Both the position numbers and the translations under genes were made by a program. The notes under the pieces were generated by a model. That model was given only the letters and a program-made list of their open reading frames with translations, was not told the DNA's origin and searched no databases. A stretch of 64,000 nt of DNA, from assembly GCA_965113315.1 (NCBI GenBank), contig OZ220363.1; one strand, written 5' to 3'. Below are positions 23,001 to 63,810 of this stretch, one piece after another (positions within the stretch are counted from its first letter, which is position 1; every line of letters starts with the position of its first letter). The stretch is from Podarcis vaucheri. Taxonomy: Eukaryota.

Positions 23001-26000
23001 ACAGAGCATGTGACCAGACTGTCAACAAACAAATGATAGCAAATATTTGAATTTTCATTCACTGACAGTCCGTGAGGCCAAAGTCAAACCCTGAACCAGC
23101 AGAAACGCTCCATAGTAGTCTTAAAAAACCTGGAATAGTAATAGTAATAATAATAATAATAATAATTTATTTATACCCCATCCATCTGGCTGGGTTTTCG
23201 CAGCCATTCTGGGCAGCTTTCAACAAAGTATTAAAACACATTGGTCCGTCAAACATTAAAAGCTTCCCTAAACAGGGCTGCCTTCATATGTCTTCTAAAT
23301 GGGGTAGATGTTTTTCTCTTTGACATCTGGTGGGAGGGTGGGTGCCACTATCGAGAAGACCCTCTGCCTGGTTCCCTGTAACTTGGCTTCTCACAGTGAG
23401 GGAACCACCAGAAGGCCCACAGCGCTGGACCTCAGTGTCTGGGCAGAACGATGGGGGTGGAGACGCTCCTTCAGGTATACAGGACCGAGGCCATTTAGGG
23501 GTTTAAAGGTCAGCACCAACACTTTGAATTGTGCTCAGAAACGTCCTGGGAGCCAATGTAGGTCTTTCAAGACCGGTGTTATGTGGTCTCGGTGGCCACT
23601 CCCAGTCACCAGTCTAGCTGCCACATTCTGGATTAGTTGTAGTTTCCGGGTCACCTTCAAAGGTAGCCCCACGTAGAGCGCATTGCAGTAGTCCAAGCGA
23701 GAGATAACCAGAGCATGCAGCACTCTGGGGAGACATTCCGCAAGCAGATAGGATTCCAGTCTGCGTACCAGACGGAGCTGGTAGACAGCCGCCCTGGACA
23801 CAGAATTGGCCTGCGCCTCCATGGACAGCTGTGAGTCCAAAATGACTCCCAGACCGCGCACCTGGTCCTTCAGGGGCACAGTTACCCTGTTCAGGACCGC
23901 ATAGTCCTCCGCACCTGCCCGCCCCCTGTCCCCCCAAAACAGTACTTCTGTCTTGTCAGGATTCAACCTCAATCTGTTAGCCGCCATCCATCCTCCAACC
24001 GCCTCCAGGCACTCACACAGGACCTTCACCGCCTTCACTGGTTCTGATTTAAAGGAGAGGTAGAGCTGGGTGTCATCTGCATACTGATGAACACTCAGCC
24101 CAAACCCCCTGATGATCTCTCCCAGCGGCTGCATGTAGATGTTGAAAAGCATGGGGGAGAGGACGGAACCCTGAGGCACCCCACAAGTGAGAGCCCAGGG
24201 GTCTGAACACTCATCCCCCCACACTTTCTGATCATGGCCCAGGAGGAAGGAGCGGAACCACTGTATGACAGTGCCCCCAGCTCCCAGCCCCTCAAGACGG
24301 TCCAGAAGGATGTTATGGTCGATGGTATCAAACGCCGCTGAGAGATCCAGCAGAACTAGGAAACAGCTCTCACCTTTGTCCCTAGCCCGCCGGAGATCAT
24401 CAACCAGTGCGACCAAGGCAGTTTCAGTCCCATGGTGAGGCCTGAATCCCGATTCGAAGGGATCCAAATGGTTCACATCCTCCAGGAGTGCTTGGAGTTG
24501 TTCAGCAACCACCCGCTCAATCACCTTGCCTAAGAATGGTAGATTTGAGACTGGGCAGTAGTTGGCCATCGTTGCCGCATCTAAAGATGTTTTTTTAAGA
24601 AGCGGTTTAATGACTGCATCTTTCAGCGGGTCTGGGAAGGCTCCCTCACAGAGGGAAGCATTCACCACCCCGCAGAGCCCATCGCTCAGCCCTTCCCGGC
24701 TAGCTTTTATAAGCCAGGATGGGCAAGGATCAAGGAGACAGGTGGTTGGTTTCACTTGTCCAAGCAGCCTGTCCACATCCTCAGAGGTGACAGATTGGAA
24801 TTGATTCCATGCAACTTGACTAGACAGGATTCTAGCACTCTCCTGGCCTGACCCTGCTCCCACGGTGGAGTCTACCTCTTCCCGAATCTGAGCAACTTTA
24901 TCTGCAAAAAGTCTTTTCTTTGGTTGGGTGGGCAAGGGCTCCACACCAAACGTCCCCCAGAGCCCTGCTAGACAAGCCAAAGCCACTCGCGGGGTTGCCC
25001 AGGCTCAATGGGGAGACACCGGCAGCAGCTCTGGGGCTCTGAGGCCTTGCCTTTGTGCTGGGCATCCTTTACCTTCAAGTCATCCTTGAAGGGGTCCGTG
25101 TTTGCTGTGCTCATCCGCAGGGCCAGCTCCAGCAAAGCCTCCAGCCGGGTGGGGACAATGTCGTCCACCGGCTTCTTCAGCTCCTCTTCGGTGAGGTCCA
25201 TGAAATGGACGTAGAAGTCCCCCTGGTCCATGAGGAAGTAGTGCTTGATGGACCTGCTCACAGAAAGGGGCCACCAGTCAACTCACTGCGGCAGGAACAG
25301 AGGAGGCAGGAGGGACCCCTCACCCACCGCCTGCCTCCTCCCGCCCAGTAGAAACAGGAAGAAGCGGACCTGGCTTTTGGAATAAGAAGTGCTGCAAGTA
25401 TCTTTATGCCATCTGCAATAAAGCAGCCCCTTGCAATTCAGCTGGGAGGCAGGAAATGGGAGGACTCTCTCTTGGAGTGGGGGTCCCATGGCCCCTGCCC
25501 CTCCACCCAGCTCCTCCTGCAGCCTCAGGGCAAGTCTATGAAAGTGCCTGCTTCCCGCCCCCTGCGGGGAAAGCACAAGCTCCTCCACACTTTTGCCCCT
25601 TCATTTCCCAAATCAGCAGCCCCTAAAACTGTCCCCGTTGGCATGGAGAAGGAAAGCAGCCTGCCAGAGACGCCACTTGGAAGGAAGCAAACCTTAAGTG
25701 GGCCACAAGTTCTTTTTCCTCCATGAGGAAATCGAGCAGCACTTTGCTGGCGTAGTTGTAGGCTTTCTCGATCTGCTCCACATATTCCCGCTCCTTCAGT
25801 GTGTAGATGACCTCTTTGGCCAGGGGGCAAGTGACATCACGGCCACACTCCCGAACGACATTCAAATACTTCCCTGCAGGACGGGAGGGACAAAGGGACA
25901 TGAGGACGGGCTCAGCTCTTCACTAAACGCTGTTCAGACCTTGTGCACAAACAAATGAGCACATTAACTCTCCCTTCCCTGCTGTCCCTCTCATCCTCCC

Positions 26001-29000
26001 AATGCGTGAAACTTAAGCACAGAACCTGACATTAGTCTCTGCTGAAACTCATTTTGTTAGTTTGGGCTGACTTCTCCAATCCGTTAAGGTATTTTTGCAT
26101 CCTGATTCTGTCTTCTGCAGCATTAGCTACCCCTCCCAGTTTGGTATCCTCTGCAAATTTGATGAGGATCCCCTCAATTGCATCATCTGTCACCTCCCTC
26201 CTTGACGGAAGGGCAATGGAAAGAAGCCAGATAAATACAACGATCGGCTTTTGGAGCTTGAGAAAAAATCTCACAGGATATCCTCCATACGACTCGCCCA
26301 GAGGCAGAAGGGAAGAGCTGCAAAGGGAACCAGACCTCCCAGGCACTCCACAAGCGCTCTTTCCCCCCCCCCGCCCCCCCCGCCTGGGGGCTTCTCCATC
26401 CACTGCATGGCCCTCCCTCCTCCCCTCCCGCTTTCCTGTCAAGCAGGAATTTGGCTCCTCACCTGTGCTGAGAATTTTGTCTGCAATCTTCTGGAGGAAG
26501 GAGGGGATCTGCTGCTGGACGATCGTGTACCTCTGGTCCCAGTACTTGTCATTATAGTCTTCTTGGATCTTCTCCTTCTGGAGCTCATGCTCTTCCACCA
26601 TGAATTCACTGTGGAATTAAAAAGCGGTTAGGCCCATGGCAGGGAGGCGCAGAGCAGGAGGCTCCCCAGGGCTCTTCATCCAGGCAGTCCCAGGACACAG
26701 TGCCCTGCTTGGACTCCCCAACAGACCACAGAGGTTTCTCCAGCTCACAGGCCAAGAGAAGGACCACAGGTTTTCTGCTGCTCCAGAGAAGCGGACACGG
26801 AGCAATGGAGCCAAACTACAAGAAAGAAGATTCCACCTAAACATTAGGAAGAACTTCCTGACAGTAAGAGCTGTTTGACAGTGGAATTTGCTGCCAAGGA
26901 GTGTGGTGGAGTCTCCTTCTTTGGAGGTCTTTAGGCAGAGGCTTGACAACCATATGTCAGAAGTGCTCTGATGGTGTTTCCTGCTTGGCAGGGGGTTGGA
27001 CTCGATGGCCCTTGTGGTCTCTTCCAACTCTATGATTCTATGATTCTAGGATCCTCCACCCACCTGTAGGGATCATTGATGATGCCTCGGTAGATCCATT
27101 TCTCCAGGATTTCGAAGTAGGGGACGCTGGCAGCCTTGGTCAAGTAGAGGCAGAGCTCCTGGGCTTGGCTGTCTCCCGTGTAGTTGAACGTCTTATCGTG
27201 CAGCAGGCTGAGTGTTGACCCTCCAACACACTCCCCTTTGTCCACAGAAGTGGCTGGAACAAGAAGCAAAGGCCAAGAAGAGTCATGTCCTGCTGAAGCC
27301 AGGGTTGGTCAGGGCACAGGTGCCCATCAATGGCAGACACACCTGGATGTTGCAGGAGCTCCCCCATCTGAAAAGGGGTCAGCAGGAGATGGCTGCTCTG
27401 GACCGTGGCCTGGGACACCGGCTTACGAGGTGAGCACCCAGAGCGGAGGCAGGGTTTCCGCAAGGCTCAATGGGCCCTTGGGGTTGGTGAAGCGAAACCT
27501 GCCTCTCAGGGGTCACTTGTGGCCCCCAAAGGTGCCCAAGAACAACTCTGAAAAGAGGCTACTGGCAACCACTTCAGGAACAGAACCTCTGCCACTCCCT
27601 GGTTGTCCTCAAGTGCACTTATGACGATTGAGGTGCTCCAGCCAATCCGCTGTGTTGAATCTGAATCATGTAGAACTGTTTATTCAAAGAATGTCCCCCC
27701 ACCCCACCCTATTCAGCTGATAGAAGCTTCTGCAAAATCCACAAATAGTGTACAGCTCACAGACTGCAGACACACAGAAACAGAGAGCGAGCACGCCAGC
27801 ATTATTCCTGCAGTCAGCAGGAGGGGCCAGGGGATTGGCTTTAATAACTGCATTATAAGTTGGAATTGTTATAATGAGGCTATTATCAGATTGTAATTGC
27901 AAACTTCTTCTTCTTCTTAATTGAATTTATATACCACCCAATACCCAGAGGTCTCAGGGCGGTTCACAGAAGAGATCAACCTTAAAAACTGTAATATATA
28001 TATACAGTAATCAAAACGAAGACATCCCGACATCCCTCTGTGGCAACTTTATAAAAATTATTACCAAAATAAGGAGGGGCCAGAGGATGCCCCCTTCTGC
28101 TCACCAGGGTGGGGGGGGGACTTGGAGGCTTCCACAGCATTTGGGGGGGGGTACAAAGGAAGCTCCCCTGCAGCTCCTCTTTCTAGGGCTGAGGGATGGG
28201 GCTCCTTGTGGGAAGGAGGAGGAGTGGCATTCCCAGGGGGCCCTGGTCCTCCCTCCAGGGGGGCGGGGAGGCCCAGAGGGAGCCCCTTTGACCTTGCTGC
28301 CCCCAGGAAAAGGAATGACCCAGTCACTGGCCTCACCTGAGACTGACTGTGGCACGAGGGAACCCCTTTCGGCGCTGGGCTGCTGGACCCCCTTGGAAGG
28401 ACCCTCCCTGCAGCAACACCCCAGCAGTGGGCAGAGCCAGAGGCCCGCCTGGACACACGGACCCAGCTCCTTCCACCGCCCCCCTTGATGAAGGAGAGCC
28501 GCCTCGGCCTCTCCTGGCGCTGGGGCTCCAAGGTCCAAGCCTCCCTCCCTCCCTCCCTCCCTTGCCCCCTCCAGGGGAGCAGGAGGCAAGCAGACAGAGA
28601 CACCCTGCTCACTGCCTCCCCCCTTGCCCTGCACTCACCCAGGGAAGCCAGGATCTCCATGGTCCTCATGGTGGGCTGGATGTAGAACCAGAGCTTTTGC
28701 AGGGAGAGGAGGCCTTGGCGCTGCAGGTGCTCCAGCTGCGTCACCAGGGTCATGTATTCCTTGACCAGGGCCCTCATGGCGGCCGCCAGCGCGTGGTTCA
28801 CCTGCCCGTACTCAAAGGAAGACTTCTCTTCCACAAACCTGTCAGGGCGCAGGACGGAGAGCTGCTGCTGGAAGCCAGCCCATCACCTCTCGGCCCCACC
28901 AGAAACGTGGCCCACCAATGCCCCCCCGCCCCCCCCCGCCCGAGATGCAAGGAAGCCTCGTTCTTGTGCAGCTCAGCCATGAGAGGAAGCAGGAAGCTCC

Positions 29001-32000
29001 CTGGGGTCCCTGAGCTCCAGGGGCCTTTGGGGGCTCTGAGCTGCTGCAGCCCCCGGGGGGGAGGAACCCCAGAGGCCCCCCCCCAGCCCTCAGCCGGAGG
29101 GATGGGACACAGGCTGTCGCTGCGTCCTCTTCGCCTCCCCCAGCTCCGTCCCTGATGAGGAACCCCAGGCTGCTACCTGGTGACGATGGAGTAGCTCGCT
29201 GCCACGGGGAGGATCCTGGTGACCAGCTCCTTGACGGACATATCCAGGTTGGGATCCACCAAGAAAGTGCGGCTCTCTCTGCCCACCAGTGGCTGCGCAG
29301 TGATGTACCGGCCATCCACCCCAATCAGGACGTAGAGCAAGTCCTCCACCACAGCAGATTCCTGGGCTGCCAGGGGCAAAGTCCCTGGCAGAGGAAAGCG
29401 GCACGTCATGCACCGGCGCCACTCAAACAAATGCATCTGGGGAACCCGCCTGAGGGCCAAAAGGGCAGCTGGCCATTCTTAAAAAGAGCAGGGTCTCCCA
29501 CCACCGGGAGAGGAGAGGGCATTTGACAGGTGGCTGCCTTGAAATGCTCTTTGACTTTATCCCTATTGATAATTTGTGCACCTGGACACGGTTTTGTGTG
29601 CTTATTTTTTTACGTCAAGCTGTTTGACACTGTTTTTACTGTGCCTGCTGGGCTCACAAATAAAACTCTACTCACATTCGTGTGTTTTCAATCTATGGTA
29701 AGCTGGCAGTTGTTGGCAGCTATGGGAGAGGAGAGGGCTTTTGGGCTTGGATCCTGCCAACGGATTTCCCACTGGGGGCATCTGGGGGGCCCCTGTGAGG
29801 ACAGGATGCTGGAATGGATAGGCCCCTTTGGCCTGATCCAGCCGCCCCACTCTTCTTGTGTTCTGGACCTTCCGCGCTGCACTGCCCAGACCCACGTTGG
29901 CAGAGCATCACCAGCTGCCCATTCAGGGTCCCAGAGAAGCATCCAGCAGGCAGGGGAGGCAGAAACAGCCCCAAGCTGGGAGACCCTCTGCTCCTCCTCT
30001 CGTGCAAGACTCACCGATAGGCACCGTGGTGTCCAGGCTCAGGCTGGAGCTCGTGAGGAAGTCCCCGATGAGGGCCGGCCTCTCATACACCCAGGCGGGA
30101 AAGGACGGGATGGGCTGCCCAGAGTTCTTCCTGTTCTGCTTGTCCCTGAGCGACTTCCGCACCAGCTCAAGAGACTGCCAAGGAAGAGAGCGAGTGACAG
30201 GCCAGCCATGGCAGCAGGGGGTGTGGCAGCTGGGCTCCCACTCACTGCCAGTTTCTGCCCCCTTTGCTCAGGGGGCAAAAGAGGCTGGCACAGTATTTGC
30301 ACCCAGGGAGGCCTCTCCGGACCCACCCCTAGTCCCCTTGGCAAACCGGAGAGCAGCCCACCTGCCCGGAGCGTTGGACAAGGCAGAACTTCCTCTGGTG
30401 TAGGCACTACAGGGAGCCCAGCTAAGGGCCTCCGGCAGGTGCCCACTGAGGTCACTGGCTTCCCATCCCAGGCTTGCTGTGTGTGAGAGAGAGATCCCAA
30501 AGGCTTTGGCTGCAGCAGACCCTTCCCTTCCCAAATAACAAATCAGGGGACCCAAGAGAAGAGAGGGACCTGTGGGGCGCTGGAGCTGGTTGTGACGGTG
30601 CCCAGCTGCTTCCGTAGCTCCTCCAGCTCCTGGACGGTCATTTTGGCTGTTGTTGAGGGGATGGAGAAAGTGACGCTGCTGCTGGCTCCGCCACTGTTGG
30701 CCGCTGCATTGGCTGCTAGCTCTGCCCTTTCCTTGGCATTTTGCTGCAAGTACTGGAGGGTCTGCAAAAGCCCCACAAAAAGCAGAACTCAGGAAGGACA
30801 CCAAAGAGCCCAAGAGCCACGGCCCACGAGGAGAGTGGATCTCCCAGCGCCTCCCCAGTCTTGATATAGGACAGCCGAGGTGGGCAACCGGCAGCCCTCA
30901 GGGGCCCGAATTCAAATTCAGGCCTCAGGCCAGAGCAACCTGTCTGTCTCTGGTCAGTCTGCCGGGTGGGAAGGGAGAGGGGGGCGGGGGGGGGCTCTGG
31001 ACCCTCCGACCACGGGCTGCAGGTCCCGCCCACCCTCTGCTTCCTCTCTTGATGGGGAACTGGTGAGCCAGCGCTGGGCCGGGCCGAGGAATGGCTGGCT
31101 GGGGCTGCTCCTGGGGGGGGGGGGACCCCGCCGAGGTCTGCCCCGTCTCTCTGTCCCCGCCCGCGCCGCCCGCCTCTCCTCACCTCCTTGTCCTCGGTCA
31201 GCTTGGCCAGCAGCTGCACCAGCGAGTCCAGGTGCCGCGTGTTCTTCGACTTCAGCTCGTCGTACTTGGTCAGAAAGTCTTCCGGCGTCCGAGAAAACTC
31301 CGCGATCTTCACCTGCGGGGAGACGGGGCGGGGCGGGGGGTCAGCGCCCGGCGGGAGGAGTCCCGGGGGGGGGCCACCCAGGGAGGGAGGGGTCCCGGGG
31401 GGGGTCCTTCCCTCCCTCTCCCTCCCTCCCTCCCCCCCGGGGCGGGGGGGGGGTCAGCGCCCGGCGGGAGGAGTCCCGGGGGGGGCCACCCAGGGAGGGA
31501 GGGAGGGGTCCCGGGGGGGTCCTTCCCTCTCTCCCTCCCCCTCCCTCCCTCCCCCCCGGGGCGGGGGGGGGGGTCAGCGCCCGGCGGGAGGAGTCCCGGG
31601 GGGGGCCACCCAGGGAGGGAGGGAGGGGTCCCGGGGGGGGTCCTTCCCTCCCTCTCCCTCCCTCCCTCCCCCCCGGGGCGGGGGGGGGGTCAGCGCCCGG
31701 CGGGAGGAGTCCCGGGGAGGGCCACCCAGGGAGGGAGGGAGGGGTCCCGGGGGGGTCCTTCCCTCTCTCCCTCCCCCTCCCTCCCTCCCCCCCGGGGCGG
31801 GGGGGGGGTCAGCGCCCGGCGGGAGGAGTCCCGGGGGGGGCCACCCAGGGAGGGAGGGAGGGGTCCCGGGGGGGGTCCTTCCCTCCCTCTCCCTCCCTCC
31901 CTCCCCCCCGGGGCGGGGGGGGGTCAGCGCCCGGCGGGAGGAGTCCCGGGGGGGGCCACCCAGGGAGGGAGGGAGGGGTCCCGGGGGGGTCCTTCCCTCT

Positions 32001-32428
32001 CTCCCTCCCCCTCCCTCCCTCCCCCCCGGGGCGGGGGGGGGTCAGCGCCCGGCGGGAGGAGTCCCGGGGGGGGCCACCCAGGGAGGGAGGGAGGGGTCCC
32101 GGGGGGGTCCTTCCCTCCCTCTCCCTCCCTCCCTCCCCCCCGGGGCGGGGGGGGGGTCAGCGCCCGGCGGGAGGAGTCCCGGGGAGGGCCACCCAGGGAG
32201 GGAGGGAGGGGGTCCGGCGGGGGTCCTTCCCTCCCTCCCCCCCCCCGGGGCCTCGCTCGCCTTGGCTCCGAGGGCGGCGGCGGAGGTGGCGGCGGCGAGG
32301 AAGGGCCCGCCCTGGCTCCTCTGCAGCAGCTCCACGTAGCCCTCGGCGCCGCCTTCCCCGCAGGAGCCCCTCGCGCGGAGGAGCCGGAGCAGCTCGTTCA
32401 CGTCGTGGTGGAGCCGGAACTCGCTCAT
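20098..32428 (-). CDS. TUBGCP2: Gamma-tubulin complex component 2, 17 coding exons, about 908 aa
   Basis: Exons 32261-32428, 31184-31312, 30570-30761, 30015-30174, 29177-29384, 28639-28838, 27064-27253, 26463-26608, 25693-25873, 25073-25253, 22768-22940, 22371-22499, 21732-21852, 21102-21245, 20870-20998, 20452-20615 and 20098-20209 sum to 2727 nt in frame. The protein reads MSEFRLHHDVNELL...RSIKHYFLMDQGDF...RLDFNGFY. An alternative upstream ATG is at 32437. The first donor is GC. Confidence 0.95.
23135..24910 (-). mobile_element. L2-clade LINE, 5'-truncated, with an open RT domain
   Basis: ORF 23535-24986 contains LLDLSAAFDTIDH, GVPQGSVLSP and YADDTQLY, and there is a (TAA)n tail near 23135-23170. 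Intronic in TUBGCP2. Confidence 0.92.
26010..26190 (-). mobile_element. CR1 LINE RT fragment
   Basis: Peptide IEGILIKFAEDTKLGGVAN (FADDTKL motif). Confidence 0.75.
26769..27048 (+). mobile_element. CR1 LINE 3' end
   Basis: Peptide RTRSNGAKLQERRFHLNIRKNFLTVRAV, then PSLEVF, then a (TCTATGAT)n tail. Confidence 0.85.
31330..32250. repeat. GC-rich minisatellite, 8 units of about 113-120 bp, filling TUBGCP2 intron 1
   Basis: The anchor TCAGCGCCCGGCGGGAGGAGTCCC recurs at about 31341, 31454, 31574, 31690, 31809, 31924, 32042 and 32157. Confidence 0.95.
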
Positions 32429-40535: not shown

Positions 40536-41634
40536 ATGGAGGATTCTCCGGCCAGGAGCGCCAGTCCATCTGGCCTCACGTATGCCGTGGCCGCTTCACA
40601 GGTGGTGGGCCTGGCTGTGATTACCCTGACGGGGGCCTGGATGGGCCAATACCGGGGCGGCATTGCCTGGGATGGATCCAAGCTGCAGTTCAATGCCCAC
40701 CCGCTGTGCATGGTCATTGGGATGGTCTTCCTCCAAGGAGACGGTAAGGAAGTGGGGGGAGGGGGGCCTTTTGAGAACTCTCTTCCAACGGAGACAACTG
40801 GGAGCTGCTTATTTCAAACCTCTCCCCCTGCTGTAACTGCATTCACAATTTAGGAGAGGGGGCAGAGCAGGATGTGCCACCCCCACCCCCCATCCCAAAG
40901 GAGGCAGAAGCACATCTTGCACTGCCCAGCCAAGGGTCCACAAACTGTGTCTGCGCATGGTCATTTAGCCACATGATTAAGGCAGATGCTCCACTAGATT
41001 ATCTTCCAGTCTGTTACTCAAATCCCAGACTTTTGAGAGACCCTCAAACCTTTTCAATTATTTGTTTGTTTTTTTTAAATATATTTATGAATTTATAAGT
41101 GTACAAAATACAGAACTGAAGAATGCTACTTGTGGGGTCTGAGCGGAGCAGTTCCTGGCCAGGGGAGCAAGAGCCAAGCCCCCTCTCAGCCAGCCCCACA
41201 CCTCATTGCCCCTCTCCCCCCTCCCTCTTCTCCTCTTGCAGCCCTCCTGGTATATCGGGTCTTCCGGCACGAGAGCAAGCGCTCCACCAAAATTCTGCAC
41301 GGGCTGCTCCACGCCCTGGCGCTGGGCATTGCACTGGTTGGTGAGTCCGGGGGGGGGGCAGCTGGAATAATCTGCCCTGTTTGCTTGAGCGTCAACCTCC
41401 TGCCTGCCTTCTCAGAAGCCCCTCTGAGGGGCACCAGGCTCAAGGGGGTGGTCAGAGGCTTCCCTGAGTCTCAGGGTCAACCCACAGCTCCTCTGAGTTC
41501 TCCAATAAGCTGGAGGAAGCGGGCATGTTTTGGGCCTCCTCTCCCATAAAAACATAAGGCTGGGGTGGACGAGGCCGTGAGTGGCTGACTGTGTTCCTCA
41601 CATATGGATTGGACTACAGCTAGCAGGGCTCCCC

Positions 41635-49234: not shown

Positions 49235-50570
49235 TTCATACAATACTCCATTGAAACATCAGGAACAACTCCTGGGTAAGATCCCATGGTCAGAAATACT
49301 CAGAGAGAGTCCAAGACTGATGGGAGTTTCCTTAAGATGAAATTTTGAAGGTCCAAATGCAGACATTTCCAACAAGAAAGAAAAGCGGGAGGCATCTAAG
49401 GAAACCGGTGTTGCTGCACAAGGAGCTTACAGATGAACTGAGAGTTAAGAAGGGAATGTATAAGAAATAGAAGAATGGAGAAATCACAAAGGAGGAGTAT
49501 ACACAAGTAGCCAATAGATGTAGGGTGAATGTCAGGTGGGCTAAAGCTCAGTATGAACTCAGGCTTGCAAGAGAGGTTAATAATAATAATAAAGGTTTAT
49601 TCAGCTATGCTCGAAGGAGGAGGAAGAACAAGCAAGTGGTAGGTCATTTGCATGGAGAAGACAGAGCAATGCTCTTGGGTGACAGAGAGAAGGCAGAACT
49701 GCTTAACATATACTTTTTCTCTGTCTTCACACAAAAGGAACGCAATGATCAACCTAGTGACAAAAGAAATGATGCAAAAAAGGAGTTGTAGCTCATGAAA
49801 GGAAAGGAGGTAGTAAGGGGACATTTAGCTACTTTAAATGAATTCAGATTTCCAGGGCCTAATGAGCTGCATCCAAGGGTACTAAAGGAGCTTGCGGGTG
49901 TAATCTCAGCCTTTGTGATCTTTGAGAATTCTTGGCGATTAGGTGAGGAGGTGGTCAAATGTCCCCATTTTCAAAAAGAGAAAAAGAAGACCCAGGTAAC
50001 TACTGACTGGTGAGCATAAAATCAATACTAGGAAAGGTCCTAGTACAGATAATTCAACAGTCAATCTATGAGCACTTAGAAAAGGATGCTGTGATTACTA
50101 AGCTCCAGCATGGGTTTCTCAAAAATATGTCACGCCAGACCAATCTCAATTCTTTTTTTGATGGACTTACAGGCTTGCTGGATCAGGGCAATGCTGTGGT
50201 CATAGTGTATCTTGATTTCAGTAAGGCTTTTGATGAAGTCCCTCATGATGTCCTTCAGAGGAAGCTGGTAAAATGTGGGCTGGATGAGATAACTGTTAAG
50301 TGGATTTGTAGCTGGTTGACTTACTGAACCCAAAGAATACTCGTTAATGGTTCCTCGTCATGCTGGAAAAAAGTGAAAAGTGGGGTGCTTCAGGGTTCTG
50401 TCCTGGGCCCATCGTCTTTATAAATGACTTGGATGAAGGAATTGAGGGGATGCTCACCCAGAGACACCAGACCAGGAAGGATAGCTAATGCTACAGAAGA
50501 CAGAATTGGGATTCAAGATGACTTTAACAGATTGGAGAAGACTGGGCCAAAACTAACAAAATGCATTTCA
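49235..50570 (+). mobile_element. CR1 LINE ORF2 remnant, frameshifted; resumes at about 51684-51789 after a nested L2
   Basis: Peptides KAQYELRLAR, PGPNELHPRVLKELA, QHGF and VYLDFSKAFDEVPH. Confidence 0.9.
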
Positions 50571-51682
50571 ATACTACTACTACTACTACTAATTTATACC
50601 ATGCCCATCTGGTTGGGTTTCCCTAGCCACTCTGGACGGCTTCCAACAAAATATTAAAATATGATAGCTTCCCTAAACAGGGCTGCCGTCAGATGTCTTC
50701 TAAAATTCTGGTAGTTGTTTTTCTCTTTGACATCTGGTGGGAGGGTGTTCTACAGGGCAGTGCTGCTACCGAGAAGGCCCTCTGCCTGGTTCCCTATAAC
50801 TTGGCTTCATGCAGTGAGGGAACCGCCAGAAGACCCTCGGCGCTGGACCTCAGTGTCTGAGCAGAACGATGGAGGTGGAGATGTTCCTTCAGGTATACTG
50901 GACCGAGGCTGTTTAAGGCTTTAAAGGTCAGCACCAACACTTTGAATTGTGCACAGAAATGTACAGTAGGTCTTTCAAGACCACTGTTATGTGGTCTTGG
51001 CGGCCACTCCCAGTCATCAGTCTAGCTGCTGCATTCTGGATTAGTTGTAGTTTCTGGGTCACCTTCAAAGGTAGCCCCACATAGAGCACATAGCAGTAGT
51101 CCAAGCGAGAGATAACTAGAGCATGCACCACTCTGGCGAGACAGTCTGCGGGCAGGTAGGGTCTCAGCCTGTGTACCAGATGGAGCTGATAAACAGCTGC
51201 CCTGGACACATAATTGACTTCAAAATGGACACAAAATGACTTCCAAGCCGTGCAGCTGGTCCTTCAGGGTCACAGTTACCCCATTCAGGACCAGGGAGTC
51301 CTCCACACCTGCCCACCTCCTGTCTCCTGAAAACAGTACTTCTGTCTTGTCAGGATTCAACTTCAATATGTTAGCTGCCATCCATCCTCCAAACACCTCC
51401 AGATACTCACTCAGGACCTTCACCGCCTTCACTGGTTCTGATTTGAAAGAGAGTTAGAGCTGGATATCATCCGGATATTGATGAACACCCAGCTCAAGCC
51501 CCCTGATGATCTCTCCCAGTGGCTGCATGTAGATGTTGAAAAGCATGGGGGGGGGAGAGGACAGAACCTTGAGGCACCCCACAAGTGAGAGCCCAGGGGT
51601 CTGAACACTCACTCCCCCCCACTCTCTGAACATGGCCCAGGAGGAAGGAGCGGAACCACTGTATAACAGTGCCCCCAGCTCC
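50571..51682 (-). mobile_element. L2-clade LINE nested in CR1
   Basis: Same family as 23135-24910 (LNPDKTEVL, ISRLDYC, QLIQNAAARL) with a (CTA)n tail. Confidence 0.88.
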
Positions 51683-51789
51683 TAGGGGGTCAAATGGAAG
51701 CTTCTACACTTAGACAGGAAGAACCAGGTGCACAAATATAAGATGAGAGACACCTAGTTGCCAGTAGTACATGTGAAAATGATCTAGGG

Positions 51790-58889: not shown

Positions 58890-59115
58890 AATCATAGAAT
58901 CATAGAACTATAGAGTTGGAAGGGACCCAGAGGGTCATCTAGTCCTGCCCCCTGCAATGCTGGAATCACAGCTAAAGCTCTTAAAAACCTCCAAGGAAGG
59001 ACGGTTCATAACCTCCCAAGGGAGACCTGTCCACTTGGACAGCTCTTGCCATCAGAAAGTTCTTCCTGACGCTGAGTCAGAATCTCCTTTCTTGTAACTT
59101 GAAGTCATTGGGTTG
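58890..59115 (-). mobile_element. CR1 LINE 3' end
   Basis: ATCATAGAATCATAGA tail and a ...GAAAGTTCTTCCTGA...CTCCTTTCTTGTAACTTG body. Confidence 0.75.
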
Positions 59116-59157
59116 AGGTACAGATAGGTAGCCGTGTTGGTCTGCCATAGTCAAAAT

Positions 59158-62100
59158 TGTTGGAGTCGGAACTTAACAGGTTAAGTTTGTCCCATGATGC
59201 CTCAACATTCTGACGTCAGCTTTAGAAGCTGGGAGGAGTTTTCTGCTCTCTCTCGGTTGTTGAGAGGAAAGGACGAAGTTTTGCCATGGCTGCAAGGAGT
59301 CCTGGAGATTTCTGAGAAATGTCGCAATAAAGAACTGTAAATAGACACGAAAGAAGGCTCTGTGTGTCTGTGGGAAGCAACGTGACAGCTTTGACCGCTG
59401 TGTTCACTCTGCTAGCCGTGACCAGAGGAAGCAAGAACGCGCAGCTGAAGGAAGCGTGCCGGGCTGTTGTTAAAAGCTAAGTTGGGTCGTAAACCCATTA
59501 GCCGGTCACGGTTGATTAAAAACATTCACAGGTTATGGACATAAATCACCGCTTGTAAAGCTGTCGCTGGGGCTGCTGGAATGCTTTGAAGTTCTGCGTT
59601 CGGAAGCAGTGGCGCTGACGGAAGCGGGGCCTGTGTCTGAGGCAAGCAAGCAACCTGAAAGACGCTGTGCTGAATGCTGCAGTGCTAAAAGCAGCAGGGA
59701 ATCGTTTCTCCACGGACAGGAGCCAGAAGAGCTTGTGAGTAAAGCTTGTGGGCACCTGGGAAGAACGGGAGACTATGGACAGAAAGCCTGTTGAAAAAAA
59801 AGGCTGCTTAGAGCTGAGAGCTGTGCCTAGCGTTTGAAGGCAAGCTGATGTCGATGCCTGAGACAGCTTTGAGTCCTGCCTGAAGTGGTGAGGCAGTCGA
59901 TCTCAGCTGGGAGCTGACCTGCTAGACCGGGAGCTGGAGAGCGGCTGTTTGTTTACGTGAGTACGCTGGGCCCCGGGGGAAGATGGCAGATGGCCAGGAG
60001 GTGATTCAAGCTCCGTTTGAACAGCTTGAGGAACTCACCGCCCAAGCGTGGAATACATGGGCAAGATGGGTGAGAGCGTGGTTTATAGCCACGGAGGTTT
60101 GGGACATTTCCCAGAGGGAACCAGTGCAACTGGTGGACAGAGATGCAGGAAAGCTGCAGTCTGCTTCTCTGGAGGAGAAAATGCAGAGAGAGAAAGCTGA
60201 CAGAGCTGAGATCTGCATGTTGCGAGCTAGCGTACACGCTAAGCTGTTGCCGTGTTTGGAAGGCATTGAGTCAGCCTGTGAAGCCTGGAAGGTGCTGAGG
60301 AGTTTGTGTCAAAGCTCAGCAGGTGGCCAGGAGCAGGAGGATGCCGAGGGCTCAGCCAGAAGCCCTGAATCTACAGCCTCACGGAGTGCTGTTGGAAGTG
60401 TTGGGGGGGCAGAGAAGCCCAAAAGCCAGTTTGGAAAAGTTTCCACTGCGTATGCTGAGAGAAAGTGCTGTTTCAGCGGGGGCGGAGCTGATGTCCCGGA
60501 AGCTGTGCTAGCTGAGAGCTCACCCCAGTACTTTTCCACTCGGAGGTGCTACGTGTGTAATTCTCCAGAACATCTGCGAAGAAATTGCCCCCACCGGAGC
60601 AAGGAGGCAAGGCAGGATGTTGTCAAGGTCAACTCACATGGGAACCAGTCGGGTTACCATGGAAACCAGCCTGGGAAAGGAGCCAGGCGTGCAACTGAGT
60701 CTGGTGGACGTGACGGAGACCAGGGGAAGATTTATCAAATAACTGCTAGTATGGCATTGTTTGAGAACAGCTGTGAGAAAGGCTCAATGTTTTGTTTTGT
60801 GATAGACTCAGCAGCTAATTGCAACTTGATTCCAGAGACCCCTGCTGTCGAGATGTGGAATTGCAGAGCAGTTACGCTCGGAAAAACAGTTCAGTTTGCA
60901 AATGGACAGAGAAATAATGTCACTAACGTTGTAAATGTGTTCTTTTCTGTTTTGCAGGAAACGTTGGAGTGTTGTACTGTCCCAGGGATACAGCACTGTC
61001 TTTTGTCTGTGCCTTATTTGTTAAAGAAGGGGTTTAAGGTTTGCTTCGAGGATAATGCCTGCACAATCTCCAAAGGAGGGAGGATACTTGCCAAGGTTAA
61101 AAAGGGGCAGAATGATCTCTTCATTCTTAAGACGCCTCTGGAGGGTGAGGGGAAAGTTGGAAAAGCACAAGCCTTACGTGCTACAGTTCCCACACATGTG
61201 TCATGTGCTCATGTTTGGCATGCAAGGACAGCTCATAGTTCTTTAGAAGAACTACAGACGCTACCTGAGGTCGCCAAAGGTTGTCACATTGTCGAATGTG
61301 GATGTGTCATAGATTGTGAAGCATGTAGACAAGCAAAGGTGAAAGGGTGCAGTTACCCAAAGGTGGAGAGGGTACACACCAAACCCTTTGAAATGGTTCA
61401 CATAGATCTGTTGGGTCCCATAAAGGAACCAAGTCTGGGAGGGTCAAGGTTTCTGCTGACGATGCAGGATAACTTTACGCAGAACACCTGGAATCACGGC
61501 CTCAAATCTAAGGAAGAGGCAGCACAACTGATCAAAAGTTGGGTAGAGGAAGTGGAACTAAGGTTTTCCACCAAAGTGCAAGCTGTCACAAGTGACAGAG
61601 GAGCTGAGTTTACAGGATCTGCTTTGCAGAGGTTCTTTCACAAGAAAGGGATACATCACACAGTGACTTCACCCAATCAGAGGGGGTGGGCTGAGCTAAG
61701 ATGTGAAGCTCTGGTTAAGACTGCAAAGGTGTTGCTGACAGATTCTGGGTTGCCACCAAAGTTTTGGCTGGAGGCAATCAAGTATGTAAGCTTCACCTGG
61801 AATCGCACCTACAATTCAATGGTAGGTGACACACCATTTGGTTTGTTGCATGGCAGGAAACCCCAGATTCATTTTTTGCGCAAGTTTGGGTCTCAATCAT
61901 CTGTGCCGGTGCCTGAGGCTTTGCAAGGGCCAGATGGATCCAAGTTCCGGAAAATGATCTTCTGTGGGTATGAGCCAGCAGCACGTGCATGGAGGTTTGC
62001 TTTCCCTTCAGGTGATCAGAGTAAGTTGCTGATCAGCAAACACGCTGAGTTCTATGAACAGGATGTAAAGTCAAAGACTCCTGTTGGGCGGGATGTTCTC

Positions 62101-62886
62101 TCAGAATGTCTTTTTGATTCAGAGCAGGAAGATGCTGGGGAGGAAGAAGAAGAGGCTGAGTCTGCTGATGACGACCAGGTCACAGACCAAGGTCTGGAGC
62201 AGGGTGGGGCATCTCCACAAGTTGTTAAAAGGGAGGTCAAGAGTGAGCCTAGTCCTCCGGTGAGTGTAAGGGAGAAGATTCGAAGTCGTTATAAGTCAGA
62301 GGGGGAATCCCGGGATGCAGAGGACACACCTGCTGGTGATGTTGTGTCAAGGGAAACATCTGAGTTTGTGCCCAGACGGTCTAGTCGCACAACGAAGGGT
62401 GTTCCACCTGAAAGATATCAGGCCACTGGTGCGTGGGTTAGTTTCGCACAGTGTGAACCTGAGAGTTATGTGGTAAGTCCACAGGTTTTGTCAGAATGTG
62501 ACGCAAGAGGGGGTGTTGGAGTCGGAACTTAACAGGTTAAGTTTGTCCCATGATGCCTCAACATTCTGACGTCAGCTTTAGAAGCTGGGAGGAGTTTTCT
62601 GCTCTCTCTCGGTTGTTGAGAGGAAAGGACGAAGTTTTGCCATGGCTGCAAGGAGTCCTGGAGATTTCTGAGAAATGTCGCAATAAAGAACTGTAAATAG
62701 ACACGAAAGAAGGCTCTGTGTGTCTGTGGGAAGCAACGTGACAGCTTTGACCGCTGTGTTCACTCTGCTAGCCGTGACCAGAGGAAGCAAGAACGCGCAG
62801 CTGAAGGAAGCGTGCCGGGCTGTTGTTAAAAGCTAAGTTGGGTCGTAAACCCATTAGCCGGTCACGGTTGATTAAAAACATTCACA
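59158..62886 (+). mobile_element. Non-autonomous Ty1/copia-type LTR element lacking RT/RNase H (3729 bp)
   Basis: The 373-bp LTRs at 59158-59530 and 62514-62886 (TGT...ACA) are identical by eye. TSD AAAAT at 59153-59157 and 62887-62891. PBS-like GGTTATGG at 59531. PPT AAGAGGGGG at 62505-62513. Confidence 0.95.
59983..62532 (+). CDS. Copia-type Gag-protease-integrase polyprotein, 849 aa, with no RT
   Basis: Knuckle CYVCNSPEHLRRNC; protease-like FVIDSAA and LLSV; IN zinc domain WHARTAH...CEAC; IN core VHIDLLGP, SDRGAEF, GWAE and PPKFWLEA; SH3-like IFCGYE; RRSSR...PPERY. The ORF ends shortly after EPESY. Confidence 0.92.
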   Translation: MADGQEVIQAPFEQLEELTAQAWNTWARWVRAWFIATEVWDISQREPVQLVDRDAGKLQSASLEEKMQREKADRAEICMLRASVHAKLLPCLEGIESACEAWKVLRSLCQSSAGGQEQEDAEGSARSPESTASRSAVGSVGGAEKPKSQFGKVSTAYAERKCCFSGGGADVPEAVLAESSPQYFSTRRCYVCNSPEHLRRNCPHRSKEARQDVVKVNSHGNQSGYHGNQPGKGARRATESGGRDGDQGKIYQITASMALFENSCEKGSMFCFVIDSAANCNLIPETPAVEMWNCRAVTLGKTVQFANGQRNNVTNVVNVFFSVLQETLECCTVPGIQHCLLSVPYLLKKGFKVCFEDNACTISKGGRILAKVKKGQNDLFILKTPLEGEGKVGKAQALRATVPTHVSCAHVWHARTAHSSLEELQTLPEVAKGCHIVECGCVIDCEACRQAKVKGCSYPKVERVHTKPFEMVHIDLLGPIKEPSLGGSRFLLTMQDNFTQNTWNHGLKSKEEAAQLIKSWVEEVELRFSTKVQAVTSDRGAEFTGSALQRFFHKKGIHHTVTSPNQRGWAELRCEALVKTAKVLLTDSGLPPKFWLEAIKYVSFTWNRTYNSMVGDTPFGLLHGRKPQIHFLRKFGSQSSVPVPEALQGPDGSKFRKMIFCGYEPAARAWRFAFPSGDQSKLLISKHAEFYEQDVKSKTPVGRDVLSECLFDSEQEDAGEEEEEAESADDDQVTDQGLEQGGASPQVVKREVKSEPSPPVSVREKIRSRYKSEGESRDAEDTPAGDVVSRETSEFVPRRSSRTTKGVPPERYQATGAWVSFAQCEPESYVVSPQVLSECDARGGVGVGT

Positions 62887-62941
62887 AAAATAACAAAATT
62901 CCTTCCAGTAGCACCTTAAAGACCAACTAAGTTAGTTCTTG

Positions 62942-62979
62942 GTATGAGCTTTCGCGTGCATGCACACTTCTTCAGATAC
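62942..62979 (-). ncRNA. Minimal type I hammerhead ribozyme of the Penelope-like element
   Basis: The minus strand reads GUAU-CUGAAGA-A-GUGUGC-AU-GCACGC-GAAA-GC-UC-AUAC. This gives the core boxes CUGANGA and GAAA, stem II, stem I GUAU/AUAC and a palindromic AGCU stem III. Confidence 0.75.
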
Positions 62980-63509: not shown

Positions 63510-63810
63510 ACCCAGATCTTCAAATATCTGAAGGGCCGTCCCATGGAAGATGGAGCCAGCTTGTGTTCTGCTGCTCCAAAGGGGAGGGACCGGAACCTAT
63601 GGATTCAAATGACAAGAAAGGAGGTTCTGCCTCAACATCAGGGAGAATTTTTCGATGGCAAGAATTGTTCAGCAGTGAAACTCCCTTGGAAGGTGGTGGA
63701 TTCTCCTTCCTTGGAGGTTTTGAAGTAGAGATCGTACGGGCATCTGTCTTGGATCATTTAGCTGTGATTCCTGCATTGCAGGGGATTGGACTGGATGACC
63801 CTTTGGGGTC
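63510..63810 (+). mobile_element. CR1 LINE 3' fragment
   Basis: Peptide IFKYLKG...VVDSPSLEV with a typical 3' UTR (GGACTGGATGACCCT). Confidence 0.75.

Follow-up and report, generated by a model that had tools for sequence, protein, structure and literature searches.

A probable RT-less copia lineage of lizards with signs of a maintained open frame and a possible packaging role for its protein

In the 64,000-nt stretch of DNA that was analysed (the window), an LTR retrotransposon was found that we explain best, at a probability of roughly 60%, as a member of an old and still-spreading non-autonomous copia lineage of lizards, the protein of which would tag its own RNA for the particles of a helper, by analogy with the mouse IAP 1Δ1 element. 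That the element belongs to a non-autonomous family and is not a one-off is very probable. Given such a family, a role of the protein as a tag in cis is likely. The element is assigned to Ty1/copia by its domain order up to integrase, its pre-integrase and SH3 integrase domains and its placement in the tree, and the structural hallmarks of the group were present, namely direct TG...CA LTRs, a 5-bp target duplication and a purine tract.

The first-pass annotation had described identical 373-bp LTRs, a perfect target duplication and an intact purine tract, and all three were verified by the sequence coordinates (Table 1). The two LTRs, each with TG...CA ends, showed 0 differences over exactly 373 nt with no further extension on either side, the purine tract directly adjoined the 3′ LTR, and AAAAT was duplicated at the flanks. 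The element had also been called freshly inserted; the identical LTRs agree with this, but the age is only loosely bounded, as 0 differences in 373 nt give a 95% upper bound of 0.8% on LTR divergence. The insertion interrupted a host repeat, the right part of which was very high-copy as judged by word depth (Table 1), although contig or word depth is not copy number. The identical LTRs, the target duplication and the split repeat are marks of retrotransposition after the loss of RT. A second copy of the element was not found in the window. Word depth was far higher over the initial ~50 nt of the LTR than over its body (~20,000 vs 1,500 in run X2 and ~9,500 vs <100 in run X8), and thus the LTR end is common to other elements.

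Table 1. Features of the element and its flanks, with window coordinates
Feature	Position	Strand	Evidence or remark
Host repeat, left part, with the target duplication in its final 5 nt (59153-59157)	59128..59157	+	24/30 letters are those directly before 62887 in other copies of the repeat (run X17)
5′ LTR, 373 nt; hexamers resembling poly(A) signals at 59326 and 59515	59158..59530	+	
LTR segment pairing with tRNA-Met(CAT) nt 1-22; may form the other half of a split primer-binding site	59388..59413	+	22/22 paired, two G-U, two bulges
LTR segment similar, in sense, to this tRNA half; pairing with 59388-59413 possible	59439..59464	+	score reached by 1/500 shuffles; best of 158 background tiles one point lower
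Primer-binding site reduced to 8 nt, complementary to the anticodon arm of tRNA-Met (nt 32-39), as in half-tRNA priming	59531..59538	+	
Leader, ~450 nt	59539..59982	+	upstream ATGs, length variants among copies
Open frame: Gag remnant, zinc knuckle, protease-like domain, integrase, acidic linker, short tail	59983..62532	+	849 aa
Gag remnant at the N terminus (aa 1-115) with four predicted helices	59983..60327	+	26/107 identical to P0001; helices 20-110, pLDDT ~65-76
Low-complexity stretch (aa 116-185) replacing the C-terminal half of the capsid	60328..60537	+	~50 residues shorter than relatives; pLDDT <30; 93% identity in X8
CCHC zinc knuckle (nucleocapsid), intact	60547..60588	+	PF00098; 4/4 conserved columns
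Protease-like domain with the catalytic Asp in a non-canonical motif	60784..61137	+	9/13 conserved columns; beta-rich in model
Integrase HHCC zinc-binding region, intact	61216..61326	+	7/7 conserved columns; PF13976 weak
Integrase core: D475, D538, E571 present; 3-residue gap in loop before Glu, several nearby changes	61378..61848	+	PF00665 E 6e-11; 24/36 conserved columns; integrase fold in model
Integrase SH3-like domain, eroded	61849..62064	+	PF25597 E 2e-9; 9/14 conserved columns
EPESY, RT/RNase H deletion junction and purine tract (62505-62513), in frame	62455..62513	+	P0001 alignment ends at P0001 residue 918; tail like RT-less P0011
3′ LTR; stop codon 62530-62532; second tRNA-pairing segment 62744-62769	62514..62886	+	identical to 5′ LTR
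Target duplication (62887-62891) and right part of host repeat	62887..62950	+	word depth 0.67-1.4 million, three runs

The coordinates also agreed with the earlier description of a single ORF that runs past the EPxSY motif (EPESY, aa 825-829, 62455-62469) and through the purine tract and stops 19 nt inside the 3′ LTR, with the first poly(A)-like hexamer ~150 nt further. The reported lack of YVDD and RNase H sequence was confirmed: the element gave no Pfam RVT match at E≤1, an RT-type motif was absent from all six frames, and tblastn with the RT-RNase H of two relatives gave no match past window position 56000 at E≤10. The RT and RNase H expected of an autonomous copia were therefore not found. 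A splice-donor-like motif was seen at the deletion junction, and splicing is a conceivable origin of the RT loss.

The description of the protein as Gag-PR-IN held for the domain order up to integrase but not for a whole Gag. The copia Gag family PF14223, which three relatives matched at E 1e-28 to 1e-33, was absent from the protein at E≤10, and from the last Gag helix to the zinc knuckle we counted 85 residues compared to 134-143 in four relatives. About 50 capsid residues are thus missing, and the complete capsid of an autonomous copia was not present. Both zinc motifs were whole (11 of 11 conserved columns), while the adjacent enzyme columns had decayed. PF22936 was not found in the protease-like domain at E≤1. 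For the integrase core and the SH3-like domain, conservation was in each case below that of all 24 references; besides the 3-residue gap there were four changes around the catalytic Glu, and PF13683, present in three relatives, was not found. The integrase core was nevertheless predicted to fold (pLDDT 80-90), and a fold search with the predicted structure returned integrases exclusively among the matches listed, with no information on the Gag remnant. The capsid loss, the family-wide deletion in the integrase loop and the tRNA-pairing segment in the LTR had been overlooked by the first-pass annotation.

Near-identical copies with RT, named beforehand as the finding that would speak against a non-autonomous family, did not appear in the protein searches. 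The closest RT-bearing protein in two protein libraries was only 39% identical (P0001, Podarcis lilfordi CAI5768508.1). P0011 (LOC144327940), a possibly spliced gene model from Podarcis muralis, was 73% identical and without RT. Its tail resembled that of our element in running through the purine tract and into the LTR, and derived changes were common to both. The two proteins formed a clade with a support of 100/100 and a stem of 0.78, compared to tips of 0.24-0.32 for the RT-bearing sisters, and our protein nested among RT-bearing lizard copia proteins (support 99/98). The autonomous lizard clade (P0001, P0009 and P0166) had the same domain order up to EPxS(Y/F), but with the full capsid PF14223, RT PF07727 and short branches, all of which our element lacks. 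Of 2983 candidates for aa 1-560 none was a short relative, and of 1569 for aa 560-849 one was, namely P0011.

Parts of the element were found in 20 of the 24 sequencing runs listed, from seven organisms and 11 studies; small word shares (runs X5-X7, X9-X16 and X18-X20) were not counted as evidence, and the largest share of the element's words in any run was 0.51. None of the runs listed as holding the element was marked as RNA, although X17 may be. Relatives were abundant in all four runs examined in detail (30, 30, 30 and 29 of 30 bins covered), which, with the independent RT-less P0011, supports the earlier proposal of a non-autonomous family. The pieces listed for these four runs were 79-100% identical, including pieces with 0 differences at word depths of 496 and 1122. 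A contig from run X17 with 79-84% identity had the same length across the integrase loop gap, and this gap must therefore be old; the capsid and integrase lesions were also common to our element and sequences from other runs. In runs X1, X2 and X8, only 0-1% of the aligned sequence ran into unlike sequence. No contig spanned the deletion junction by 31 letters on each side among the contigs listed, outside of which were 506 loose ends and 9908 pieces, and an X2 contig (85% identity, depth 4) stopped at the junction with 187 more letters not displayed. A loose end in X17 continued into an RT start like that of P0001, and P0001 is a candidate for the helper.

The earlier claim that the long ORF is maintained was supported by three weak and borderline tests, and the in-frame deletion ORF shows signs of being kept open under selection. 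Fifteen of the 36 ORF differences listed were synonymous (26% expected) with 0 stops (p = 0.03), giving a crude dN/dS near 0.5; gap totals were divisible by three in five of six gapped pieces inside the ORF and in none of four outside (p = 0.048); and the probability of an open frame after 5% neutral change was 0.003. The material for these tests was selected by the software, with subfamilies mixed, and comprised 36 out of 697 differences and 10 pieces with gaps. Copies in X1 and X2 carried a 2-nt insertion at 61359.

The primer-binding site was shortened (Table 1), and two variant junctions in X1 paired 8 and 9 nt of tRNA-Met, where the tRNA-Met(CAT) sequence used came from metagenome records and not from a lizard. 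We take this tRNA to be the initiator. The LTR segment at 59388-59413 paired with tRNA-Met nt 1-22 at -34.9 kcal/mol (z -6.1, 0 of 200 shuffles), was the sole standout of 11 tRNA windows and paired more strongly than any site in a 118-kb background. A control window from the 5′ end of tRNA-His gave z -3.2, and the signal may thus be partly generic. When all 39 nt of the tRNA half were used, four background sites paired as well as the LTR site, and the signal was confined to nt 1-22. A stable hairpin between this segment and 59439-59464 was rejected, as it was no more stable than shuffles (z +1.19). An Rfam search of 59100-60050 at E≤10 yielded neither a tRNA nor another convincing family. Identity with Helenus/TRIMp3, short non-coding elements whose LTRs carry a tRNA-like Pol III promoter, was also rejected; the element is 3.7 kb and coding, without an Rfam tRNA, and its strongest match was complementary and not sense.

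Together the two sites suggest a split primer site made of 8 nt at the primer-binding site and the 22-nt LTR segment. According to the available text of PMC10886601, the primer sites of copia and Ty5 match the anticodon arm of tRNA-Met, as does the site found here for half-tRNA priming. Ty3 is described in the available text of PMC5371799 as having a bipartite primer site with a second pairing site in the LTR, a likeness to our element, but Ty3 primes from the 3′ end of a whole tRNA. For a split site that takes the 5′ end of a half tRNA, no precedent was found in the literature searched; if real, the site extends what is known of half-tRNA priming.

A scenario that would account for these features starts with an ancestor that lost RT-RNase H in frame together with the C-terminal half of the capsid; the loss is observed, and its ancestral timing is what we infer. 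Copying and integration of the RNA would then fall to an autonomous P0001-type relative, for which the LTR ends, the purine tract and the half-tRNA-Met primer site would be retained in cis, the 8-nt part probably being backed by the 22-nt LTR segment, which by its computed pairing could hold the 5′ end of the tRNA. The ORF would be retained since its product acts in cis. If the analogy with IAP 1Δ1 holds, newly made protein would use its intact zinc knuckle to bind the mRNA that it came from, and would co-assemble with the helper particle via the Gag remnant, the integrase zinc domain or both, and open-frame copies would thereby be packaged preferentially. With enzymes from the helper, the protease motif, the integrase catalytic loop and the SH3 domain could decay; their erosion is observed, and activity was presumably lost with it. 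Among three roles proposed earlier for the protein or its translation, cis-packaging fits best and has a precedent, evasion of NMD accounts for the open frame and leaves the intact zinc motifs unexplained, and dominant-negative interference is unlikely. Counting against our explanation, all three acidic residues and the predicted fold of the integrase survive, and the enzyme may still work. A more tentative idea, which we hold to be somewhat doubtful, is that the whole polyprotein, with the N-terminal part of Gag, the knuckle and dead protease and integrase folds, became a non-catalytic packaging tag in cis over a long coexistence with the helper, and that the half tRNA is won by a split site with its larger part in the LTR.

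Translation alone could be what matters, with a frame open into the 3′ LTR that shields the RNA from degradation or directs it to sites of assembly, and a protein sequence that is nearly irrelevant. The position of the stop ahead of the first poly(A)-like hexamer, the fast protein change (stem 0.78), the modest synonymous excess and the P0011 frame, which likewise enters its LTR, are all in line with this, but selection on the frame only does not predict that 11 of 11 zinc-region columns are kept while enzyme columns decay, nor the retained predicted fold of the integrase core, and we consider it unlikely. Quite unlikely, too, is a semi-autonomous partner that would borrow only RT and capsid and equip the common particles with a working integrase (and protease), possibly one that prefers ends or targets of its own. 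In favour of this, the element has the D, D, E and HHCC residues as well as the protease Asp, its predicted structure resembles retroviral integrases, and plant precedents, as far as the available texts describe them, supply Gag (PMC9744471, PMC11302176). Against a working integrase speak the 3-residue gap, the four altered positions near the catalytic Glu, a conservation of core and SH3 domain under that of all 24 references, and the absence of the PF13683 match seen in three relatives.

A dominant-negative or host-favoured restriction factor against autonomous copia is very improbable. Assembly might be poisoned by a shortened Gag that still has its RNA-binding knuckle; however, the element is helper-dependent, young and dispersed and not a fixed single locus, and the Ty1 restriction factor p22 works through the C-terminal part of the capsid, which is missing here. 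We see just as little chance that this is a copy of an RT-bearing family with a deletion after insertion at this locus or an assembly error. No run held more than 0.51 of the words, so the exact copy lacks independent confirmation, and none of the contigs listed spanned the junction. Against these points stand the lack of any RT-bearing protein above 39% identity in either library, the independent RT-less sister P0011, the lesions found in other runs, the 0-1% of aligned sequence that enters unlike sequence in X1, X2 and X8, and a junction that is in frame between identical LTRs.

The non-autonomous lineage that we favour matters in that surveys based on RT are blind to such families, and in that hundreds of public lizard copies offer a natural, domain-by-domain readout of which parts of a retrotransposon polyprotein are active in cis. 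No description of this RT-less family was found in the literature searched; Repbase, Dfam, subscription papers and supplements may hold one.

In the available portions of the sources, non-autonomous LTR elements that keep an ORF are already known from plants and mouse, and those compared keep Gag or derive closely from the helper. In mouse IAP 1Δ1, an internal in-frame deletion made one Gag-Pol fusion that aids retrotransposition in cis, with Gag and Pol in trans (Saito et al. 2008 as cited in PMC7411935). Our element is alike in its in-frame internal deletion and single fusion ORF, but on this account IAP is retrovirus-type and close to its helper, whereas ours is a copia at 39% identity to the nearest RT-bearing protein, without all of RT-RNase H and half of the capsid, and in at least two diverged subfamilies. 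The wheat elements RLG_Sabrina_SA/WHAM and RLG_Quinta are described in the available texts as long-lived 'semi-autonomous' Gypsy partners with intact ORFs that co-evolve with the helper, the partnership being tested by shared primer site and LTR ends (PMC9744471, PMC11302176). As described there, they keep Gag with a protease or DUF and lack RT and integrase; our element keeps integrase and has a broken capsid, and thus cannot be a Gag donor in that sense. Non-autonomous Athila elements form whole families without pol, with ORFs under purifying selection (PMC2410132, available text), and TR-GAG and other TR types have two LTRs around one partial ORF (PMC9784723, available text). Identity with TR-GAG was rejected since its ORF is Gag-only, whereas ours holds protease and integrase with an incomplete capsid, and among the Athila and TR types described in these portions, all from plants (Gag, Gag+Env, RT, RT-RH, RH and INT-RT), none combined a Gag remnant with protease and integrase without RT. 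What is new here compared to these systems is a copia lineage with an RT-less frame, integrase included, that was kept across deep divergence.

The RT-less copia element at 59158..62886 (+) has LTRs of 373 nt (59158-59530 and 62514-62886) with no differences between them and with TG and CA ends, a 5-nt duplication on both sides, and a purine tract immediately before the 3′ LTR. A single 849-codon reading frame begins at 59983 and ends at 62532, its stop lying 19 nt within the 3′ LTR; all of this agreed with the first-pass annotation. The reported lack of RT was also confirmed, as the Pfam matches in the ORF comprised the integrase core, an SH3-like domain, the zinc knuckle and a pre-integrase domain but no RT, no RT motif was found in the six frames of the element, and RT-RH of two relatives gave zero matches past window position 56000. 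The element is a copia, as shown by the anatomy of its LTRs, the order of its domains, its place in the tree and its type of primer, and it is not an autonomous one. It interrupts a very abundant host repeat, with 24 of 30 letters of the left flank found just before 62887 in other repeat copies. A short host repeat is present as two inverted copies either side of the element (58926-59111 and 63596-63807). Because identical LTRs only bound divergence at 0.8% (95%), the element, described as freshly inserted, is young and not necessarily brand-new. Other features of the window are listed in the table.

Other annotated features of the window
Feature	Position	Strand	Remark
Gypsy/Ty3-type element	655-7212	+	direct repeats 655-1410, 6462-7212: 95.4% alike over 756 nt
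Gypsy/Ty3-type Gag frame	1415-2581	+	
Gypsy/Ty3-type Pol frame (PR, RT, RH, IN)	2392-5388	+	
Gypsy/Ty3-type SH3 part	from 5389	+	cut off from Pol by in-frame stop
Non-LTR-type RT fragments	23535-25004	-	related copies 13092-14004, 50570-51685; 78-83% alike
Host exons	about 21400-32400; 41091-41549	-; +	GC-rich, gene-dense region
Gamma-tubulin complex component domain	28061-28882		within host exons
Cytochrome b561 piece			among the host exons

The protein proved to be an incomplete Gag-PR-IN, more eroded than the first-pass annotation held. It has 85 residues separating the last Gag helix from the CCHC zinc knuckle, compared to 134-143 in four relatives, the capsid family PF14223 was undetectable, and a structure model from a 9-row alignment showed four N-terminal helices followed by disorder (mean pLDDT 53.8). 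Conservation was scored against 24 references, namely P0009, an RT-bearing lizard copia protein, and 23 RT-motif proteins, 1150-1500 aa long, from a set of 171 (two near-duplicates left out); columns at least 80% conserved among them were counted, with leave-one-out for the references. The query kept every conserved column of the zinc motifs (knuckle 4/4, integrase HHCC region 7/7), 5/7 in the Gag N-part and 9/13 in the protease. It retained 24/36 in the integrase core and 9/14 in SH3, and none of the 24 references scored so low in either. Losses in the core were concentrated around the catalytic Glu, directly preceded by a 3-residue gap. Since the acidic triad persists and the fold is retained in the model, predicted integrase activity is doubtful but possible.

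The closest named proteins came from Podarcis lilfordi and P. muralis, which points to a lacertid lizard as the most probable host. A search of 1.84 billion representatives returned P0011, a P. muralis gene model (XP_077785850.1), at 73% identity over aa 585-836, and no RT domain was found in it; as a prediction, it could be spliced. After the EPxS-like motif, P0011 has about 20 residues aligning with the RT start and then a query-like tail, which passes through Arg-Gly-Gly where the query DNA is the purine tract; the query is about 26 codons shorter here. Directly after EPESY, at 62470-62490, there is a splice-donor-like motif and, a few letters on, an acceptor-like one, a pair that could act to shorten the tail or be due to chance. 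A 26-row tree built on aa 586-700 joined the query and P0011 in a clade with 100/100 support, whose stem measured 0.78 changes per site. With 99/98 support, this clade was nested among the RT-bearing P0001 (P. lilfordi CAI5768508.1) and P0009 (tips 0.24 and 0.32). A quick tree of aa 268-700 gave the query a branch of 1.1 versus about 0.5. Near-identical RT-bearing copies were absent from two protein libraries, where the nearest RT-bearing protein was 39% identical. Three Logan contigs (P0165, P0166 and P0168) encode a second, apparently complete copia family of 1385-1386 aa that clusters with P. lilfordi proteins and is another possible helper, besides the candidate P0001.

Part of the element was present in 20 of the 24 sequencing runs listed (7 coded organisms, 11 studies). 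The best runs contained 0.51 of its words, and therefore no run holds this exact copy. Four of the 24 runs (X1, X2, X8 and X17) were compared with 59531-62950 at 80% likeness and covered 30, 30, 30 and 29 of 30 bins. Among the matches listed (32 pieces; 9908 others), identity spanned 79 to 100%, and two pieces had zero differences at word depths of 496 and 1122, word depth being no copy number. Numerous diverged variants thus exist in the runs. The stretch replacing the capsid also occurred in X8 (93% identity), and an X17 contig (79-84%) equalled the query in length at the integrase loop gap. X1 and X2 had in common a leader variant at 59668-59773 (104 nt swapped for 32 other letters, depth about 300), a distinct subfamily in two organisms. 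Related sequence was plentiful in all four runs (79-100% identity among the matches listed), whereas no piece among the matches listed bridged the RT junction. X1, X2 and X8 had no junction loose end among the matches listed (506 other loose ends), and 0-1% of their compared sequence continued into unlike sequence; one X2 contig (85%, depth 4) ended at 62474, with 187 further letters not displayed. At 62462, an X17 loose end ran on into sequence that resembles the beginning of the P0001 RT, and an RT-bearing relative is therefore present in X17.

Three weak tests concurred in suggesting that the frame is kept open, in samples that were tool-chosen and mixed subfamilies. Among the matches listed, 36 of 40 differences (657 others) fell in the ORF, with 15 synonymous, 21 nonsynonymous and no stops, and the synonymous share exceeded the expected 26% (p=0.03). 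Total gap lengths in the 10 gapped pieces among the matches listed were divisible by three in 5/6 within the ORF and 0/4 elsewhere (p=0.048), and the probability of frame survival under 5% neutral change was 0.003. Against a kept frame stood an insertion of 2 nt at 61359, present in two of the runs.

Selection on a parasite's ORF would necessarily act in cis, because a freely shared product would equally favour copies with a broken frame. The decay pattern, as read from the alignments, points to RNA binding and assembly rather than catalysis. The best reading, with a probability of about 0.6, is that the protein would bind its own mRNA and co-assemble into the particle of a helper, whose enzymes would perform the RT and integrase work. 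Mouse IAP 1Δ1 has been reported, in the part of the source cited, to act likewise (PMC7411935).

That translation alone matters, whatever the product, is unlikely. Slightly less probable is a working integrase donated to shared particles, which the acidic triad and modelled fold would favour and the losses around the catalytic Glu, with the gap, argue against. A local deletion or assembly error would agree with the unbridged RT junction among the matches listed, but the independent RT-less sister P0011 makes it very improbable; a role as restriction factor is equally improbable. The RT-less copia is real, and it very probably represents a family.

A metagenome search with three short window motifs gave 116 loci; 15 of the 16 checked were tRNA-Met(CAT) at the match, presumably the initiator tRNA, and 108 matches had one 39-nt 5′ half in common. 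The primer site of the element was complementary to just 8 nt of this tRNA (nt 32-39, anticodon arm), which is metagenomic and differs in source from the lizard's own gene. The LTR segment 59388-59413 paired with the entire nt 1-22, the sole standout of 11 sliding tRNA windows (-34.9 kcal/mol, z -6.1, 0/200 shuffles); a tRNA-His control gave z -3.2, and across 118 kb of background sequence nothing matched the segment's pairing with nt 1-24. The two sites are probably a split primer site. Within the Gag coding region, 60058-60100 paired at -40 kcal/mol with the other, 3′ half of this tRNA, as well as 2/150 block shuffles did; a half-tRNA primer should be without that half. The leader has a second stretch that resembles tRNA-Met in sense orientation (59605-59631; score reached by 2/500 shuffles), and it could pair with the LTR segment. 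The anticodon arm of tRNA-Met is the primer region of copia and Ty5 according to section 3.6 of PMC10886601, and the candidate split site resembles the bipartite primer site of Ty3, as far as described in PMC5371799.

A copia element with full domains from a squamate is on record in the part of PMC4657000 cited. A literature search, with repeat libraries, subscription papers and supplements beyond its reach, returned no account of the present family or of its domain set. The general idea of an ORF-keeping non-autonomous element already has precedent, as excerpts describe mouse IAP 1Δ1 (PMC7411935), wheat Sabrina_SA and Quinta (PMC9744471, PMC11302176), Athila families (PMC2410132) and TR-GAG and related types (PMC9784723), and the element would work in a similar way. 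As described there, and unlike the element, IAP 1Δ1, Sabrina_SA, Quinta, Athila and TR-GAG keep Gag or are without integrase.
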